Below are positions 1,173 through 7,348 of a DNA stretch of 7,517 nt, piece by piece. Under the pieces are notes generated by a model. That model worked only from the letters and a program-made list of their open reading frames with translations. It had not been told where the DNA came from and did no database searches. The position numbers were made by a program, and so were the translations under genes. The stretch lies in the IMG/VR virus record IMGVR_UViG_3300029816_000066, positions 1 to 7,517 of that record; one strand, given 5' to 3'. Source of the DNA: a virus. Taxonomy: Duplodnaviria > Heunggongvirae > Uroviricota > Caudoviricetes. How positions within the stretch are numbered: the stretch's first letter is position 1; each line of letters starts with the position of its first letter.

Positions 1173-1916
1173 ATGACAGAGACAGAATCAGCGATTCTGG
1201 CGCATGCCCGGCGATGTGCGCCAGCGGAGTCGTGCGGCTTCGTGGTGAGAGCGCCGGAGGGGGAAAGATATTTTCCCTGCGTGAATATCTCCGGTGAGCC
1301 GGAGGCGTATTTCCGGATGGCTCCGGAGGACTGGCTGCAGGCAGAGATGCAGGGTGAGATTGTGGCGCTGGTCCACAGTCATCCCGGTGGTCTGCCCTGG
1401 CTGAGTGAGGCCGACCGGCGGCTGCAGGTGCAGAGTGATTTGCCGTGGTGGCTGGTCTGCCGGGGGGCGATTCATAAGTTCCGCTGTGTGCCGCATCTCA
1501 CCGGGCGGCGCTTTGAGCACGGGGTGACGGACTGTTACACGCTGTTCCGGGACGCTTACCATCTGGCGGGGACTGAGATGCCGGACTTTCATCGTGAGGA
1601 TGACTGGTGGCGTAACGGCCAGAATCTCTATCTTGATAATCTGGAGGCCACAGGGCTGTATCAGGTGCCGTTGTCAGCGGCGCAGCCGGGCGATGTGCTG
1701 CTGTGCTGTTTTGGTTCATCGGTGCCGAATCATGCCGCCATTTACTGTGGTGACGGCGAGCTGCTGCACCATATTCCTGAACAACTGAGTAAACGGGAGA
1801 GGTATTCCGAAAAATGGCAACGACGAACGCATTCTGTCTGGCGTCACCGCCACTGGCACGCATCTGCCTTCACGGGGATTTGCAACGATTTGGCCGCCGC
1901 CTCAGCCTGTATGTGA
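1173..1916 (+). CDS. K: Tail assembly protein K (lambda gpK-like), 247 aa; MPN/JAMM domain plus NlpC/P60 (C40 peptidase) domain
   Basis: JAMM motif H-S-H-x7-S-x2-D is present (HSHPGGLPWLSEAD) with upstream Glu candidates at aa 19 and 29. C-terminal NlpC/P60-like Cys/His residues (VTDCYTLF, VPNHAAIY, LLHH). 3' end overlaps the I gene by 103 nt in a different frame, as in lambda. Internal Met49 at nt 1317 would give 199 aa, the annotated lambda gpK length, but the long form keeps the complete domain. Confidence 0.88.
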   Translation: MTETESAILAHARRCAPAESCGFVVRAPEGERYFPCVNISGEPEAYFRMAPEDWLQAEMQGEIVALVHSHPGGLPWLSEADRRLQVQSDLPWWLVCRGAIHKFRCVPHLTGRRFEHGVTDCYTLFRDAYHLAGTEMPDFHREDDWWRNGQNLYLDNLEATGLYQVPLSAAQPGDVLLCCFGSSVPNHAAIYCGDGELLHHIPEQLSKRERYSEKWQRRTHSVWRHRHWHASAFTGICNDLAAASACM

Positions 1917-2494
1917 ACACGGCAGCGGAAGCCATCCGTGCCCTGTCGTTACAGGTGCCGGGCTTTCGCCGTCAGATGAACGAAGGCTGGTACCAGATAC
2001 GTATTGCCGGTGATGACACGGCACCGGAGGCGGTGTACGCCCGTCTTCACGAACAGCTGGGTGAGGGAACGGTCATCCACATTGTGCCGCGACTGGCCGG
2101 AGCCGGAAAGGGCGGACTGCAGATTGTGCCGGGGGCGGCAGCCATCGTGGGCTCTTTCTTCACGGCCGGTGCCTCGATGGTGTTATGGGGTACAGCCCTG
2201 AGTGCCGGCGGTTTTTCTGCCACCACGATGCTGTTTTCACTGGGGGCCAGCATGATACTGGGCGGTGTGGCCCAGATGCTGGCCCCGAAGGCAAAAACAC
2301 CGGATTACCGCGCAACGGATAACGGCAGACAGAACACGTACTTTTCCTCGCTGGATAACATGATTGCCCAGGGGAACCCGATGCCGGTGCCTTACGGGGA
2401 AATGCTGGTTGGCTCCCGCCGTATATCCCAGGACATCAGCACCCGTGATGAAGGCGGGGGCGGAAAGGTCGTGGTTATCGGGCGGCAGGGGTAA
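1814..2494 (+). CDS. I: Tail assembly protein I (lambda gpI-like), 226 aa
   Basis: Strong similarity to my recall of lambda gpI (ARICL(H/Y)GDLQRFGRR, AEAIRAL, IHIVPR, FSLGASM(I/V)LGGVAQMLAPKA, DNG(R/K)QNTYFSSLDNM(I/V)AQGN, YGEM, VVVIGR). Length 226 vs 223 aa. Start lies inside the 3' end of K, as in lambda. Confidence 0.92.
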   Translation: MATTNAFCLASPPLARICLHGDLQRFGRRLSLYVNTAAEAIRALSLQVPGFRRQMNEGWYQIRIAGDDTAPEAVYARLHEQLGEGTVIHIVPRLAGAGKGGLQIVPGAAAIVGSFFTAGASMVLWGTALSAGGFSATTMLFSLGASMILGGVAQMLAPKAKTPDYRATDNGRQNTYFSSLDNMIAQGNPMPVPYGEMLVGSRRISQDISTRDEGGGGKVVVIGRQG

Positions 2495-2540
2495 AAAGAA
2501 TAAAAAAATCCCGCAGTGATCGCGGACAGGAACTGCGGGA
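2495..2540 (-). terminator. Intrinsic terminator on the minus strand: 8-bp GC-rich stem followed by a U-tract, abutting the I stop codon
   Basis: On the minus strand, TCCCGCAG (2540-2533) pairs with CTGCGGGA (2516-2509), then TTTTTTTATTCTTTTT follows (2508-2493). The 16-nt loop is long and may form extra pairs. On the + strand the same hairpin is preceded by A-runs and has no T-tract, so it acts only leftwards. Confidence 0.6.
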
Positions 2541-2598
2541 GAGTTACGAAGATTAAGTGTAAGGAATTATTCTTATATCACGACAAAAAAATTAACGC
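2495..2598 (-). ncRNA. Candidate small non-coding RNA (~100 nt) encoded in an I-J intergenic insert, transcribed antisense to the tail operon
   Basis: Defined by the promoter at 2605-2632 and the terminator at 2495-2540, both on the minus strand. The predicted transcript (GCGUUAAUUUUUUUGUCGUGAUAUAAGAAUAAUUCCUUACACUUAAUCUUCGUAACUC-hairpin-UUUUUUU) contains no ATG; its GTG and TTG codons each hit a stop within 3 codons. AU-rich body plus 3' stem-loop and poly-U is a typical Hfq-type sRNA layout. TSS is inferred at about 2598, not measured. Confidence 0.45.
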
Positions 2599-2604
2599 AG
2601 AGAA

Positions 2605-2632
2605 ATTATACGCGCCACAGTCAGTTTGTGAA
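2605..2632 (-). promoter_or_regulatory. Sigma70-type promoter on the minus strand: -35 TTCACA, 16-nt spacer, -10 TATAAT
   Basis: Minus-strand TATAAT at 2610-2605 (6/6 to consensus) and TTCACA at 2632-2627 (5/6 to TTGACA), 16-nt spacer. An A/T-rich stretch lies directly upstream (minus-strand GCATAAAAATTCTGAATATC, 2660-2641), resembling an UP element. Confidence 0.6.
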
Positions 2633-2703
2633 AATGTGAAGATATTCAGAATTTTTATGCCATTACCGGTTTTAACCAACAGGATTATCGGTGGGCATGA
2701 AAG

Positions 2704-2740
2704 AAAACCCCGGTATCTGCTGATACCGGGGTTTCTCTTT
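2704..2740. terminator. Bidirectional intrinsic terminator-like hairpin: perfect 10-bp stem, 4-nt loop, A-run on one side and T-run on the other
   Basis: CCCCGGTATC (2708-2717), loop TGCT, GATACCGGGG (2722-2731), followed by TTTCTCTTT (2732-2740) and preceded by AAGAAAA (2701-2707). Confidence 0.7.
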
Positions 2741-2837: not shown

Positions 2838-5800
2838 ATGGGAAAAGGTGGCGGTAAGGCACACACGCCTCGTGAGGCGAAGGATAATCTCAAATCCACG
2901 CAGATGATGAGTGTGATTGATGCGATTGGTGAGGGACCGATAGAAGGTCCGGTGAAGGGACTGCAGAGTATTCTGGTGAACAAAACCCCGCTGACGGACA
3001 CGGACGGTAATCCCGTGATACACGGTGTGACTGCGGTCTGGCGTGCCGGGGAGCAGGAGCAGACACCACCGGAAGGCTTTGAGTCCTCCGGAGCTGAAAC
3101 CGGACTGGGCGTGGAAGTGACGAAGGCAAAACCGGTGACGCGCACCATTACGTCCGCGAACATTGACCGCCTGCGGGTTACCTTCGGGGTGCAGTCACTG
3201 GTGCAGACCACGTCAAAGGGCGACCGTAATCCTTCCTCTGTCCGGATTCTGATTCAGTTACAGCGTAATGGCCGCTGGGTGACGGAAAAGGATGTCACCA
3301 TTAACGGCAAGACCACCTCGCAGTTCCTGGCCTCGGTGATTCTGGATAATCTGCCTCCCCGGCCCTTTAACATCCGGATGGTCAGGGAGACGGCGGACAG
3401 CACCACGGACCAGCTGCAGAATAAGACGCTGTGGTCGTCATACACCGAAATCATCGATGTGAAACAGTGCTACCCGAACACGGCCATTGTGGGGCTGCAG
3501 GTGGATGCGGAGCAGTTCGGCGGCCAGCAGATGACGGTGAACTACCATATCCGCGGTCGCATCATCCAGGTGCCGTCAAACTATGACCCGGAAAAACGCA
3601 CGTACAGTGGTATCTGGGACGGCAGCCTGAAACCGGCATACAGCAACAACCCGGCCTGGTGTCTGTGGGACATGCTGACTCACCCGCGCTACGGCATGGG
3701 AAAACGTCTGGGGGCGGCGGATGTGGACAAGTGGGCGCTGTATGCCATCGGGCAGTACTGCGACCAGACGGTCCCGGATGGTTTCGGGGGGACCGAGCCG
3801 CGGATGACCTTTAATGCGTACCTGGCACAACAGCGTAAGGCGTGGGACGTTCTCAGTGATTTCTGCTCTGCGATGCGCTGTATGCCGGTATGGAACGGCC
3901 AGACGCTGACGTTCGTTCAGGACCGTCCGTCGGATGTGGTGTGGCCGTACACCAACAGCGATGTGGTGGTGGATGATAACGGCGTGGGTTTCCGCTACAG
4001 CTTCAGTGCCCTGAAGGACCGGCACACGGCAGTGGAGGTGAATTACACCGACCCGCAGAACGGCTGGCAGACCTCCACGGAACTGGTGGAAGACCCGGAA
4101 GCCATACTGCGCTACGGACGCAACCTGCTGAAGATGGACGCGTTCGGCTGTACCAGCCGCGGTCAGGCCCACCGTGCCGGGCTGTGGGTGATAAAGACCG
4201 AACTGCTGGAAACGCAGACGGTGGATTTCACGCTCGGGTCACAGGGGCTGCGTCACACACCCGGTGACATCATTGAAATCTGTGATAACGACTATGCCGG
4301 GACCATGACCGGCGGACGTGTCCTGTCCATCGATGCCGCCAGCCGTACCCTGACGCTGGACCGGGAGGTGACACTGCCGGAGACCGGCACGGCCACTGTT
4401 AATCTGATTAACGGCAGCGGTAAGCCGGCGAGCGTGGCCATCACCGCACACCCCGCGCCTGACCGGATACAGGTCAGCACCCTGCCGGATGGTGTGGAGA
4501 CATACGGTGTGTGGGGACTCTCCCTGCCGTCACTGCGTCGTCGCCTGTTCCGCTGTGTCTCCATTCGGGAAAACACGGACGGCACGTTCGCCATCACGGC
4601 GGTGCAGCACGTACCGGAAAAAGAAGCCATTGTGGATAACGGGGCCAGCTTTGAGCCGCAGTCAGGCAGCCTGAACAGCGTTATCCCACCGGCAGTGCAG
4701 CACCTGACGGTGGAGGTGAGTGCAGCTGACGGTCAGTATCTGGCACAGGCGAAATGGGACACGCCGCGGGTGGTGAAGGGTGTGCGCTTCAGTCTGCGTC
4801 TGACCAGCGGAAGCGGAGAAGACAGCCGTCTGGTGAGCACCGCCATCACCGCAGACACGGAGCACCGTTTCAGTGGTCTGCCGCTGGGGGAATACACCCT
4901 GACGGTGCGGGCCATTAACAGCTACGGCCAGCAGGGCGAACCTGCGACCACCACCTTCCGGATTAACGCGCCTGCAAAACCCGCCACCATTGAGCTGACG
5001 CCGGGGTATTTTCAGATAACGGCGGTCCCGCGTCTTGCGGTGTATGACCCGACGGTACAGTTTGAATTCTGGTTCTCAGAAAAACGCATCACGAACACAG
5101 CACAGGTGGAAAAATCTGCCCGTTATCTGGGGACCGGCAGTCAGTGGACTGTCCAGGGGAGCCGGATTAAGCCGGGGACGGATTTCTGGTTTTACGTGCG
5201 AAGCGTCAACCTGGTGGGAAAATCTGCTTTTGTGGAAGCCAGCGGGCAGCCCAGCAATGATGGTGAAGGGTATCTGGAAATTTTCCGGGGGCTGATAGAT
5301 GAGACGCTTCTGGGCCAGGCACTGAAAGAGCGCATTGATGCTTCAGCGCTGCGTACGGAGGTCACGCAACTGGAAGAAGACATCCGTCAGCGGATGGACA
5401 CGGATATCGCAGAAGTGACCCGGAAAATCGGGGAGGCAGAAAACAGCCTCACGCAGCTGGTTGCGAAAAAGAATGAGGACCAGACACTGGCCATCGCGCA
5501 GGTGAGCCAGAAAGTGGACCGGGTGAGCAGTGAAATCTCACAGACTGTCAGCCAGGGGCAGTCAGAAAATGCCCGACAGATAGCACAGGTCCGCCAGTAC
5601 GTGGATAAAAAAGGGAGTGAAATTACCTCGACCACGGATAAAAAACTGGGTGACCAGGCCGTGACCATACAGCAAATCCAGCGGGTTCAGTCAGACACGC
5701 GCAATGAGCTGAATGCCATGTATATGCTGAAGGTGCAGAAAACAAAAAACGGTATTCCCTATGTGGCCGGGATTGGTGCGGGGATTGAGGATGTTGATGG

Positions 5801-6530
5801 TCAGACGCTGAGCAGTATTCTGCTGCAGGCTGACCGTATCGCGATGATTACCCCGGAGAATGGCAACACCACGCCGCTGTTTGTGGCGCAGGGGAATCAG
5901 CTGTTCATGAACGACGTGTTCCTGAAGCGACTGTTTGCGGTGAGCATCACGTCATCCGGCAATCCTCCTACGTTTTCCCTGACGCCGGATGGCAGGCTGG
6001 CAGCCCGCAATGCGGATATCAGTGGAGCCATCACGGCGAATACCGGCACGCTCAATAATGTCACCATTAACGAGAACTGTGTCATCAGAGGGAAACTGTC
6101 TGCAAACCAGATTGAAGGCGATCTCGTTAAAACAGTGGGTAAGGCTTTCCCCCGTGGCTCCCGTGCACCGGAGAGGTGGCCATCAGGGACCATTACCGTC
6201 AGGGTTTATGACGATCAGCCGTTTGACCGGCAAATTGTTATTCCGGCGGTGGCATTCAGCGGTGCCAGACATGAGCGGGAGAATAACGATATTTATTCGT
6301 CATGCCGCCTGATAGTACGGAAAAACGGTGCTGAAATTTATAACCGTACCGCGCTGGATAATACGCTGGTTTACAGTGGTGTTATTGATATGCCTGCTGG
6401 TCGCGGCCACATGACGCTGGAGTTTTCTGTATCAGCATGGTGGGTAAATGGCTGGTATCCCACAGCAAGTATCAGCGATTTGCTGGTTGTTGTGATGAAG
6501 AAAGCCACTGCAGGCATCACGATTAGCTGA
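2838..6530 (+). CDS. J: Central tail fibre / host specificity protein J (lambda gpJ-like), 1230 aa
   Basis: N-terminus [22 protein letters not shown]…[15 protein letters not shown] and many later blocks ([93 protein letters not shown]…[40 protein letters not shown]) match my recall of lambda gpJ. A fibronectin-III-like segment lies at about aa 610-700. RBS GGGGAAGG sits 4 nt upstream of the ATG. Confidence 0.95.
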
Positions 6531-6548: not shown

Positions 6549-6576
6549 GGGCGCCAGAAATGGCGCCTTTTTTATT
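6549..6576 (+). terminator. Intrinsic terminator immediately downstream of J
   Basis: GGCGCC (6550-6555), loop AGAAAT, GGCGCC (6562-6567), then TTTTTTATT (6568-6576). Confidence 0.65.
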
Positions 6577-6597
6577 GCAGAAAAGCGAGAGGTAATT

Positions 6598-7197
6598 ATG
6601 CGTAAATTATGTGCTGTTATTCTGTCCGCAGTAGTCTGGCTGGTTGCCGCTGGTACGCCAGCGAGCGCAGCAGAGCATCAGTCCACACTAAGCGCCGGGT
6701 ATCTTCAGACCCACACTGATATGCCAGGCAGCGATAATCTGAACGGGATTAACGTGAAATACCGTTATGAGTTTACGGACGCGCTGGGGCTGATTACGTC
6801 CTTCAGTTATGCCAATGCTGAGGATGAGCAAAAAACGCACTACAGCGATACCCGCTGGCATGAAGATTCCGTGCGTAACCGCTGGTTCAGCGTGATGGCG
6901 GGGCCATCTGTACGCGTGAATGAATGGTTCAGTGCTTATGCGATGGCAGGTGTGGCTTACAGCCGTGTGTCGACGTTCTCCGGGGATTATCTCCGCGTAA
7001 CTGACAACAAGGGGAAAACGCACGATGTGCTGACCGGAAGTGATGACGATCGCCACAGCAACACGTCTCTGGCGTGGGGAGCTGGCGTGCAGTTTAACCC
7101 GACCGAATCCGTGACCATTGATATTGCTTATGAAGGTTCCGGTAGTGGCGACTGGCGAACGGATGCATTTATTGTTGGTATCGGATACCGTTTCTGA
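6598..7197 (+). CDS. lom: Lom-like outer membrane protein (Ail/Lom/OmpX/PagC family 8-stranded beta-barrel), 199 aa, with signal peptide
   Basis: N-terminal signal peptide (MRKLCAVILSAVVWLVAAGTPASA then AEHQ). Conserved blocks relative to lambda Lom (GINVKYRYE, SVMAGP, SAYAMAGVA, DIAYEGSGSGDWRTD, FIVG(I/V)GY) and a C-terminal aromatic residue (…GYRF) typical of beta-barrel OMPs. RBS GAGAGG sits 5 nt upstream of the ATG. Same position as lambda lom, between J and stf. Confidence 0.9.
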   Translation: MRKLCAVILSAVVWLVAAGTPASAAEHQSTLSAGYLQTHTDMPGSDNLNGINVKYRYEFTDALGLITSFSYANAEDEQKTHYSDTRWHEDSVRNRWFSVMAGPSVRVNEWFSAYAMAGVAYSRVSTFSGDYLRVTDNKGKTHDVLTGSDDDRHSNTSLAWGAGVQFNPTESVTIDIAYEGSGSGDWRTDAFIVGIGYRF

Positions 7198-7302
7198 CAA
7201 CAGACGCCGATTTATCTTCTGTAAATATTGTTATGATACGCAGGTTCATCCGCCTTATGGGGTGAACTGCGTTTGAGGAAACGTAAAGTTACACTGTCCT
7301 GA

Positions 7303-7334
7303 AGCCCGTGGCGTCACTGCTGCGGGCTTTTTTT
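7303..7334 (+). terminator. Intrinsic terminator downstream of lom
   Basis: Imperfect ~11-bp stem with G-U wobbles (AGCCCGTGGCG / TGCTGCGGGCT) around loop TCAC, followed by a T7 tract (7328-7334). Confidence 0.55.
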
Positions 7335-7348
7335 ATTGGTGGAAAAGT

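Follow-up and report, generated by a model that had tools for sequence, protein, structure and literature searches.

A divergent, apparently uncatalogued allele of the prophage small RNA PasB, predicted between tail genes I and J of a lambda-like prophage

Described prophage RNAs and the setting of the locus

The OOP RNA of phage lambda is a 77-nt antisense RNA, convergent to cII, that overlaps the 3' end of the cII coding sequence and acts in cis via RNase III. PasB of EPEC E2348/69 is an 83-nt RNA encoded on the minus strand of prophage PP6 (NC_011601 1466343-1466261) between E2348C_1436 and E2348C_1437 (PMC8550237, table S6); in RefSeq these two genes are tail assembly gene I, which ends at 1466255, and J, which begins at 1466496. 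PasB was detected by northern blot and requires Hfq for its stability (Pearl Mizrahi et al. 2021, PMC8550237). The DESeq2 tables of that study list a baseMean for PasB of 482 in DMEM at exponential phase and of 1082 in static overnight LB culture, with log2 changes in the hfq mutant of -6.8 and -2.4, respectively, and baseMean values of 4.8 and 15 for the flanking I and J. In RIL-seq, PasB has 37 partners and is nearly always the second RNA in the chimera, which is typical of sRNAs, and all Pas sRNAs contact both core and accessory targets (PMC8550237). No phenotype has been reported for PasB. The family was surveyed by Zhu, Shabalina and Storz (2026) using blastn with a word size of 28 and a query coverage of >75%; the PasB variants are said there to differ by few nucleotides, and the seed is placed just upstream of the terminator (bioRxiv 10.64898/2026.05.13.724894).

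Two further types of prophage cargo are relevant for comparison. AgvB and AsxR are Hfq-bound anti-sRNAs of EHEC prophages, 51-60 nt in length, that are encoded downstream of PR' near the stx and lysis genes (Tree et al. 2014, PMC4104026). Phage morons, in the summary given in the same paper, are independent units within a conserved operon (Juhala et al. 2000, cited in PMC4104026).

The stretch analysed here (the window) comprises 7,517 nucleotides of the IMG/VR virus record IMGVR_UViG_3300029816_000066 and corresponds to the tail-tip end of a lambda-like prophage. The coordinates of its features are summarized in Table 1. Pfam confirms the assignment of I (Lambda_tail_I), K (JAB and NlpC/P60), J (seven tip-attachment domains) and Lom. 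The gap between I and J amounts to 343 bp, and the remaining genes of the window overlap or are closely packed. The same gap is found with 100% identity in CFT073, S88, ATCC 25922 and many further complete E. coli genomes, and RefSeq carries no annotation within it. Genes K and I overlap by 103 nt (1814-1916, with I starting from ATG 1814), and the overlap in lambda is 103 nt too. In this form gene I encodes 226 aa and scores 59 bits against Lambda_tail_I (profile positions 3-83), versus 37 bits (profile positions 26-83) for the 193-aa RefSeq form that starts at GTG 1913; the RefSeq version of I is probably too short.

Terminator-like hairpins with T-runs are present on the plus strand at 6549-6578, directly 3' of J, and at 7301-7340, directly 3' of lom. 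They flank lom as a separate unit, as expected of a known lysogenic-conversion gene. A 66-codon plus-strand reading frame (2657-2857, ATG 2657), corresponding to the hypothetical protein gp9c of phage ASU11, is probably spurious, as it has no ribosome site, crosses the spacer hairpin and is missing from the short spacer type.

Table 1. Positions of genes, RNA features and regulatory elements in the window
Feature	Position	Strand	Details and basis
M, L, K, I, J, lom, stf (tail-fibre gene start)		+ (all)	ORF list, Pfam
Tail assembly gene I	1814..2494	+	ORF list; stop TAA 2492-2494
Gap from I stop codon to end of the sRNA U-tract	2495..2501	.	7 nt, read from sequence
Predicted PasB-family small RNA gene, ~97 nt	2502..2598	-	Predicted +1 G2598 to U7 end 2502
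Intrinsic terminator	2502..2540	-	Stem CCCGCAG 2539-2533 / CUGCGGG 2516-2510, U7 2508-2502
Candidate seed box UCCUU-ACAC-UUAAUCUUCG	2547..2565	-	Single-stranded, conserved; alignment
(ARN)3 tract AAGAAUAAU	2566..2574	-	Candidate contact for the Hfq distal face
U7 run near the 5' end	2585..2591	-	Follows conserved GCGUUAA; alignment
Sigma-70 promoter	2605..2632	-	-35 TTCACA 2632-2627, 16-nt spacer, -10 TATAAT 2610-2605; 11/12 matches
CRP-like box TGTGA-AGATAT-TCAGA	2635..2650	.	Directly upstream of -35
GC-rich hairpin upstream of J	2704..2740	+	Stem 2708-2717 / 2722-2731, then UUUCUCUUU
Tail tip gene J	2838..6530	+	ORF list, Pfam

Identity of the RNA and architecture of its gene

The predicted RNA occupies the same slot as PasB, namely the I-J gap of a lambdoid prophage, on the strand opposite to the tail genes. 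A covariance model was built from E2348/69-type and other non-window alleles only and used to search the window. A single significant match was returned (2598-2502, minus strand, 57.5 bits, E 1.1e-12), which spans model positions 1-94 of 94 and so indicates homology over the whole RNA. The northern probe published for PasB (AATCCCGCAGTGATCGCGGAGCT) matches window positions 2508-2527. In comparison to the E2348/69 locus, the promoter region and the terminator are nearly identical and the RNA body has diverged; the two RNAs share about 71% identity with a longest common word of 25 nt, and intermediate mosaic alleles connect the two types in the alignment. Searches of Rfam, which contains no model of this RNA, gave no match at gathering thresholds, and at E values up to 10 returned chance-level matches only (<20 bits). 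Judged by its sequence, the 2502-2598 element is a divergent, apparently uncatalogued allele of the known prophage sRNA family PasB. The discovery is modest, since the family, its I-J position and its orientation have already been published.

The first-pass annotation had placed a candidate sRNA at 2495-2598, abutting the 3' end of gene I, and both parts of that proposal are borne out. A promoter, a terminator and the full-length covariance match support the RNA; 7 nt of T-rich sequence lie between its U7 and the I stop codon, and it does not overlap the I coding sequence. The predicted +1, G2598, is also the position at which that annotation had ended the element. The published 5' end of the 83-nt EPEC RNA falls 15 nt inside the start predicted here, and E2348/69 carries the same promoter. 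A protein-coding reading of 2502-2598 is ruled out, as the RNA has no AUG.

The terminator stem is GC-rich (9 bp), carries an extending U2540-A2509 pair and closes a 16-nt loop, and the fold has a predicted energy of -15.7 kcal/mol (z -4.0). Past the U7, the T-rich stretch TTCTTTT (2500-2495) continues up to the I stop; in about 200 related copies the distance from the I stop to the U-run is 4-7 nt. The plus-strand version of the hairpin folds with -17.0 kcal/mol and is followed by GAGAGTTACG, without a T-run. With no T-run on the plus side, the pasB terminator is one-way and late transcription is not stopped there. Scan counts alone are near chance for the window, with three promoter-like sites versus 0.9 expected and one terminator versus 0.7. 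The small RNA gene is therefore judged to be real on the basis of homology to an experimentally detected sRNA and not on scan counts.

The CRP-like box (TGTGAAGATATTCAGA) matches 9 of the 10 half-site bases of TGTGA-N6-TCACA and is the sole site in the window with at most one mismatch, a match count that is insignificant for the window (0.29 expected; a match in 54 of 200 shuffles). Both half-sites are intact in 64 of 66 distinct cassettes, with five forms of the 6-nt spacer, and in 62 of those 64 the box lies 32.5 nt from the -10 element; most of these loci were collected by a pattern that includes the box, and only the variants in two unbiased sets count as evidence. The centre of the box is located at about -44.5 from the predicted start and not at the class II position of -41.5, and the sRNA promoter also has a good -35 element of its own. 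The box upstream of PasB in E2348/69 is nearly identical. PasB levels in overnight LB exceed those in exponential DMEM, and Spot 42, an sRNA reported to be repressed by CRP, behaves in the opposite manner; the two conditions differ in too many respects for this contrast to bear on CRP control.

Read along the minus strand, the RNA is composed of GCGUUAA, the U7 run at 2591-2585, a short variable stretch, (ARN)3, the UCCUU box, a short linker, the terminator hairpin and its U7. At least three ARN repeats are found at the same position in 33 of 33 alleles, and 3% of shuffles of the window allele reach its ARN count. The UCCUU of the seed box resembles an anti-Shine-Dalgarno sequence. Within the box a 4-nt core (2560-2557) varies between alleles, with the forms ACAC, AACA, CACA, AACG, AACU, AUAG and GUGG (alignment A2, columns 50-54), and the flanks UCCUU and UUAAUCUU are kept; this pattern suggests that the seed core may be a swappable element on a fixed scaffold. 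As no RIL-seq target motif has been reported for PasB, the position of its seed is a guess, and so is the position assigned in the window allele.

RNAalifold and pair counting on 23 alleles gave the invariant terminator stem only, with no covariation. The loop of this stem ranges from 4 to 16 nt, and all of the sequence upstream of the terminator is unpaired in the consensus fold. The window RNA has the make-up of an Hfq-type sRNA, in that a hairpin followed by U7 is joined to an A/U-rich, single-stranded body with an (ARN)n tract. Every allele retains the terminator stem, the ARN tract, the U-run and the seed box, despite an identity in the RNA body as low as 56%. Together with the unpaired body, these are hallmarks of Hfq-bound, base-pairing sRNAs, and Hfq binding is predicted here. 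Such features are unneeded for pure cis-antisense pairing, and a role in trans is thereby favoured. When the sRNA body was compared with the start regions of M, L, K, I, J, lom and stf, the best duplex had a z of -1.55 and a shuffle fraction of 0.08. The duplexes are thus no better than those of shuffled controls and give no sign of trans control over the neighbouring tail genes.

Allele variation, distribution and the spacer upstream of J

The window allele is present at at least 99% identity in 633 complete E. coli records, which include CFT073, S88 and ATCC 25922. A PasB query run at the survey settings (word size 28) gives no match on the window; at a word size of 11 a 25-nt piece of the terminator alone aligns, corresponding to 30% coverage. 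These settings are an operational choice of one survey and not a biological boundary. The published few-nucleotide variation fits the E2348/69 cluster, whose position-27 variant is the commonest form in the collected set. On these alignments, the window allele was most likely left uncounted in the published survey. The literature on uropathogenic strains yielded nothing specific to this RNA. The EcOnc sRNAs of EHEC Sakai were also considered as candidates, and no entry in the supplements of Tree et al. could be assigned to an I-J gap.

By blastn, the PasB family is found in 1847 of 5426 complete E. coli genomes, with at most nine copies in each. A scan of bacterial genomes, one per species, with the promoter block returned E. 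albertii only, besides two contigs, in agreement with the published restriction of PasB to Escherichia and Shigella. The two additional contigs, assigned to Asaia platycodi (546 bp) and Streptomyces flavalbus (3408 bp), carry an E. coli prophage tail together with the cassette and most likely represent contamination.

Thirty-three distinct RNA alleles were gathered from IMG/VR contigs. Among 80 loci with an I protein at least 96% identical to that of the window, the cassette is present in 71 of the 71 I-J gaps that were scorable, meaning that both the I stop and the J start could be delimited. Within this set the mean identity is 97-98% for the 300-nt flanks in I and J, 86.5% (minimum 56%) for the RNA and 67% for the spacer past the promoter. 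The combination of conserved flanks with a diverged RNA and spacer marks the I-J gap as a mosaic joint for allele exchange. In E. coli JNE170426 (NZ_AP027217.1 1162768-1163720) two complete cassettes with different seed cores lie in tandem within a 471-bp I-J gap, and the U-run of the copy adjoining I touches the stop codon. From this arrangement the unit can be delimited: it comprises the upstream box, the promoter, the RNA and the terminator. Individual IMG/VR contigs show disruptions of the region: in L036 an insertion sequence separates the -35 from the -10 element of the sRNA promoter, L022 has an IS-like insertion in its long spacer, and a 47-bp deletion in L069 runs across the spacer hairpin.

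The I-J spacer of the window is about 100 bp longer than that of E2348/69. The GC-rich hairpin upstream of J (2704-2740) lies outside the sRNA cassette, folds with -26.7 and -28.7 kcal/mol on the two strands (plus strand -26.7) and is terminator-like on both. The corresponding spacer of lambda comprises 60 nt and carries no sRNA, and here a plus-strand GC hairpin is followed by UUUUGUCAUUU (L212 764-790). In the E2348/69 type the hairpin upstream of J (L001 1931-1964) was called a terminator by the scan, and 98.9% of its pairs are kept over nine haplotypes, with one compensatory change from C-G to U-A. A hairpin with a T-run upstream of J is therefore seen in three unrelated versions, those of the window, of the E2348/69 type and of lambda. 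Since the sRNA-less lambda also has the hairpin, it appears to be an older feature of the late operon, with the cassette inserted between the I stop and the hairpin. The hairpin could stop RNA polymerase that is without antiterminator modification, or could act as a processing or stability element. The spacer as a whole (2601-2840) has an unusual amount of structure on either strand (z -4.3 and -4.7), and no shuffle folds as well.

A plus-strand RNA ending at the hairpin upstream of J was considered and rejected, as the promoter sought for it was not found. The promoter scan gave no plus-strand promoter anywhere between I and J, including one for J alone, and J, probably with the genes after it, would thus rely on transcription through the pasB cassette.

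Mode of action and relation to known systems

We consider it probable that 2502-2598 encodes a ~97-nt Hfq-dependent sRNA of the PasB family, carried as a self-contained backwards cassette, expressed in the lysogen and acting in trans on bacterial and accessory mRNAs. The cassette, composed of the CRP-like box, promoter, RNA and one-way terminator, would have been inserted backwards between the I stop and the older hairpin. In a lysogen, where the late operon is silent, it would be transcribed alone, and the RNA would be held by Hfq via its U-tail and ARN tract, while its single-stranded UCCUU...UUAAUCUUC region would pair with bacterial mRNAs and those of the accessory genome. The close fit to I and the opposite orientation would be packing features of the cassette. 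Upon induction, late transcription would pass head-on through the cassette and probably silence the sRNA promoter; this silencing, and the 97-nt complement in the late mRNA, would be likely side effects and not the main function.

The first-pass annotation had argued that the RNA is probably made mainly in the lysogen and has a host-directed or prophage-maintenance role, and data published for the homologue speak for expression in the lysogen and action on the host: EPEC PasB is abundant while I and J are near-silent, it has 37 RIL-seq partners, and the Pas sRNAs contact core and accessory targets. By analogy with this homologue of about 71% identity, the window allele would be expected to share the lysogen expression, the Hfq dependence and the trans partners. 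Head-on interference is expected from work on convergent phage promoters. It is plausible that late transcription interferes with the sRNA promoter on induction and lowers sRNA synthesis, and any effects on induction are a possible secondary effect of the arrangement.

The main alternative is that the RNA acts chiefly in cis. Even without any read-through, the sRNA is complementary over its full length to the untranslated spacer that separates I and J in the late mRNA, and as there is no promoter between I and J, every I-to-J transcript holds a perfect 97-nt complement. Pairing in the spacer could conceivably lead to cleavage and alter the I:J ratio or shift the time at which the tail tip is made, in the manner of OOP; the tight abutment to the I stop, which is kept family-wide, and the dependence of J on upstream promoters are compatible with such regulation. 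We nevertheless regard it as unlikely that this is the principal function. The duplex begins 7 nt past the I stop and ends 239 nt before the J start, covering neither coding sequence nor a ribosome site, and the conserved ARN, U-run and seed features would be unneeded. Moreover, I and J were not found among the PasB partners in the available portion of the EPEC RIL-seq interaction tables, where late genes are barely expressed, and lambda works without this RNA. The first-pass annotation had also envisaged that read-through of the terminator yields RNA antisense to the 3' end of I and to the K/I overlap. The terminator does end 7 nt from the I stop, so that any read-through would at once be antisense to I, but the expectation does not hold up well and a regulatory effect of this kind appears very improbable. 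The terminator is canonical and GC-rich, with -15.7 kcal/mol and a U7 followed by more T, 7 nt separate the end of the mature RNA from the I stop, the K/I overlap (1814-1916) lies about 590-690 nt beyond the terminator, and in EPEC the RNA is mapped as one discrete species of 83 nt. Rho would be expected to end an untranslated read-through transcript of about 590-690 nt.

Two further readings dispense with a functional sRNA. The hairpin at 2510-2539 might primarily serve the late mRNA as a structural element, such as a 3' stabiliser following I, and the minus-strand promoter would then be incidental. An invariant stem with a variable loop, and a plus-strand version that also folds (-17.0 kcal/mol), would be in keeping with this; however, the U7 is present on the minus side only, a near-consensus promoter lies about 100 nt upstream on the same strand, the homologue is a detected Hfq-bound RNA, and lambda lacks this hairpin, which together leave this reading with a very small probability indeed. 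A chance pairing of promoter-like and terminator-like sites, with no gene present, would agree with scan counts near the shuffle expectation, but it is effectively refuted by full-length homology to a validated sRNA (E ~1e-12) and by conservation of the cassette in about one third of complete E. coli genomes, and its probability is close to nil.

A more far-reaching possibility, which we put forward as a doubtful one, is that the locus functions as a two-mode switch. In the lysogen, the output of the Hfq-bound sRNA would track carbon status through the conserved CRP-like box, and exchange of the 4-nt seed core among phages would direct it to new host genes. On induction, the abundant late mRNA, with its perfect complement, would sequester the sRNA and undergo cleavage in the I-J spacer. 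If true, host targets would be released, and the expression of J, lom and the tail-fibre gene would be uncoupled from that of the upstream tail genes. The preferred reading, that of a lysogen-expressed, trans-acting PasB-family sRNA, has a bearing on many strains: a pasB cassette occurs, in one copy or more, in about one third of complete E. coli genomes, and once the window allele is named, the family takes in a large group of extraintestinal strains. Hypotheses also arise on Hfq dependence, on control by carbon source, on retargeting through the seed core and on the cost, at induction, of a backwards sRNA gene.

Of the systems described above, PasB of E2348/69 is matched in the I-J slot, the opposite orientation, the terminator stem with U7 and the layout of a 5' GCGUUA-U run, ARN tract, UCCUU...AUCUU box and terminator. 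The seed core differs, being CACA or AACA in E2348/69-type PasB and ACAC in the window allele, as do the terminator loop (11 nt versus 16 nt in the window) and the spacer hairpin. Like lambda OOP, the window element is a short RNA transcribed from its own promoter to its own terminator. It is directed against a phage operon, is complementary to the opposite-strand transcript and has its 3' terminus where the upstream gene ends. Unlike OOP, it leaves 7 nt free before the I stop codon and has no coding overlap, and its homologue has many trans partners. With AgvB and AsxR it shares the status of lambdoid prophage cargo encoded against the late transcript, a conserved 3' part with a variable pairing segment, and ARN motifs. 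The sequences are unrelated, however, and the Rfam models of AgvB and AsxR have no match in the window; an identity with AgvB was rejected on this ground and because AgvB is located near PR'. Finally, the pasB cassette resembles a moron in that it has its own promoter and terminator, sits between two genes of an operon and is missing from the lambda junction. Classical morons encode proteins, as does lom (6598-7197 in the window), whereas pasB encodes an RNA and faces backwards.
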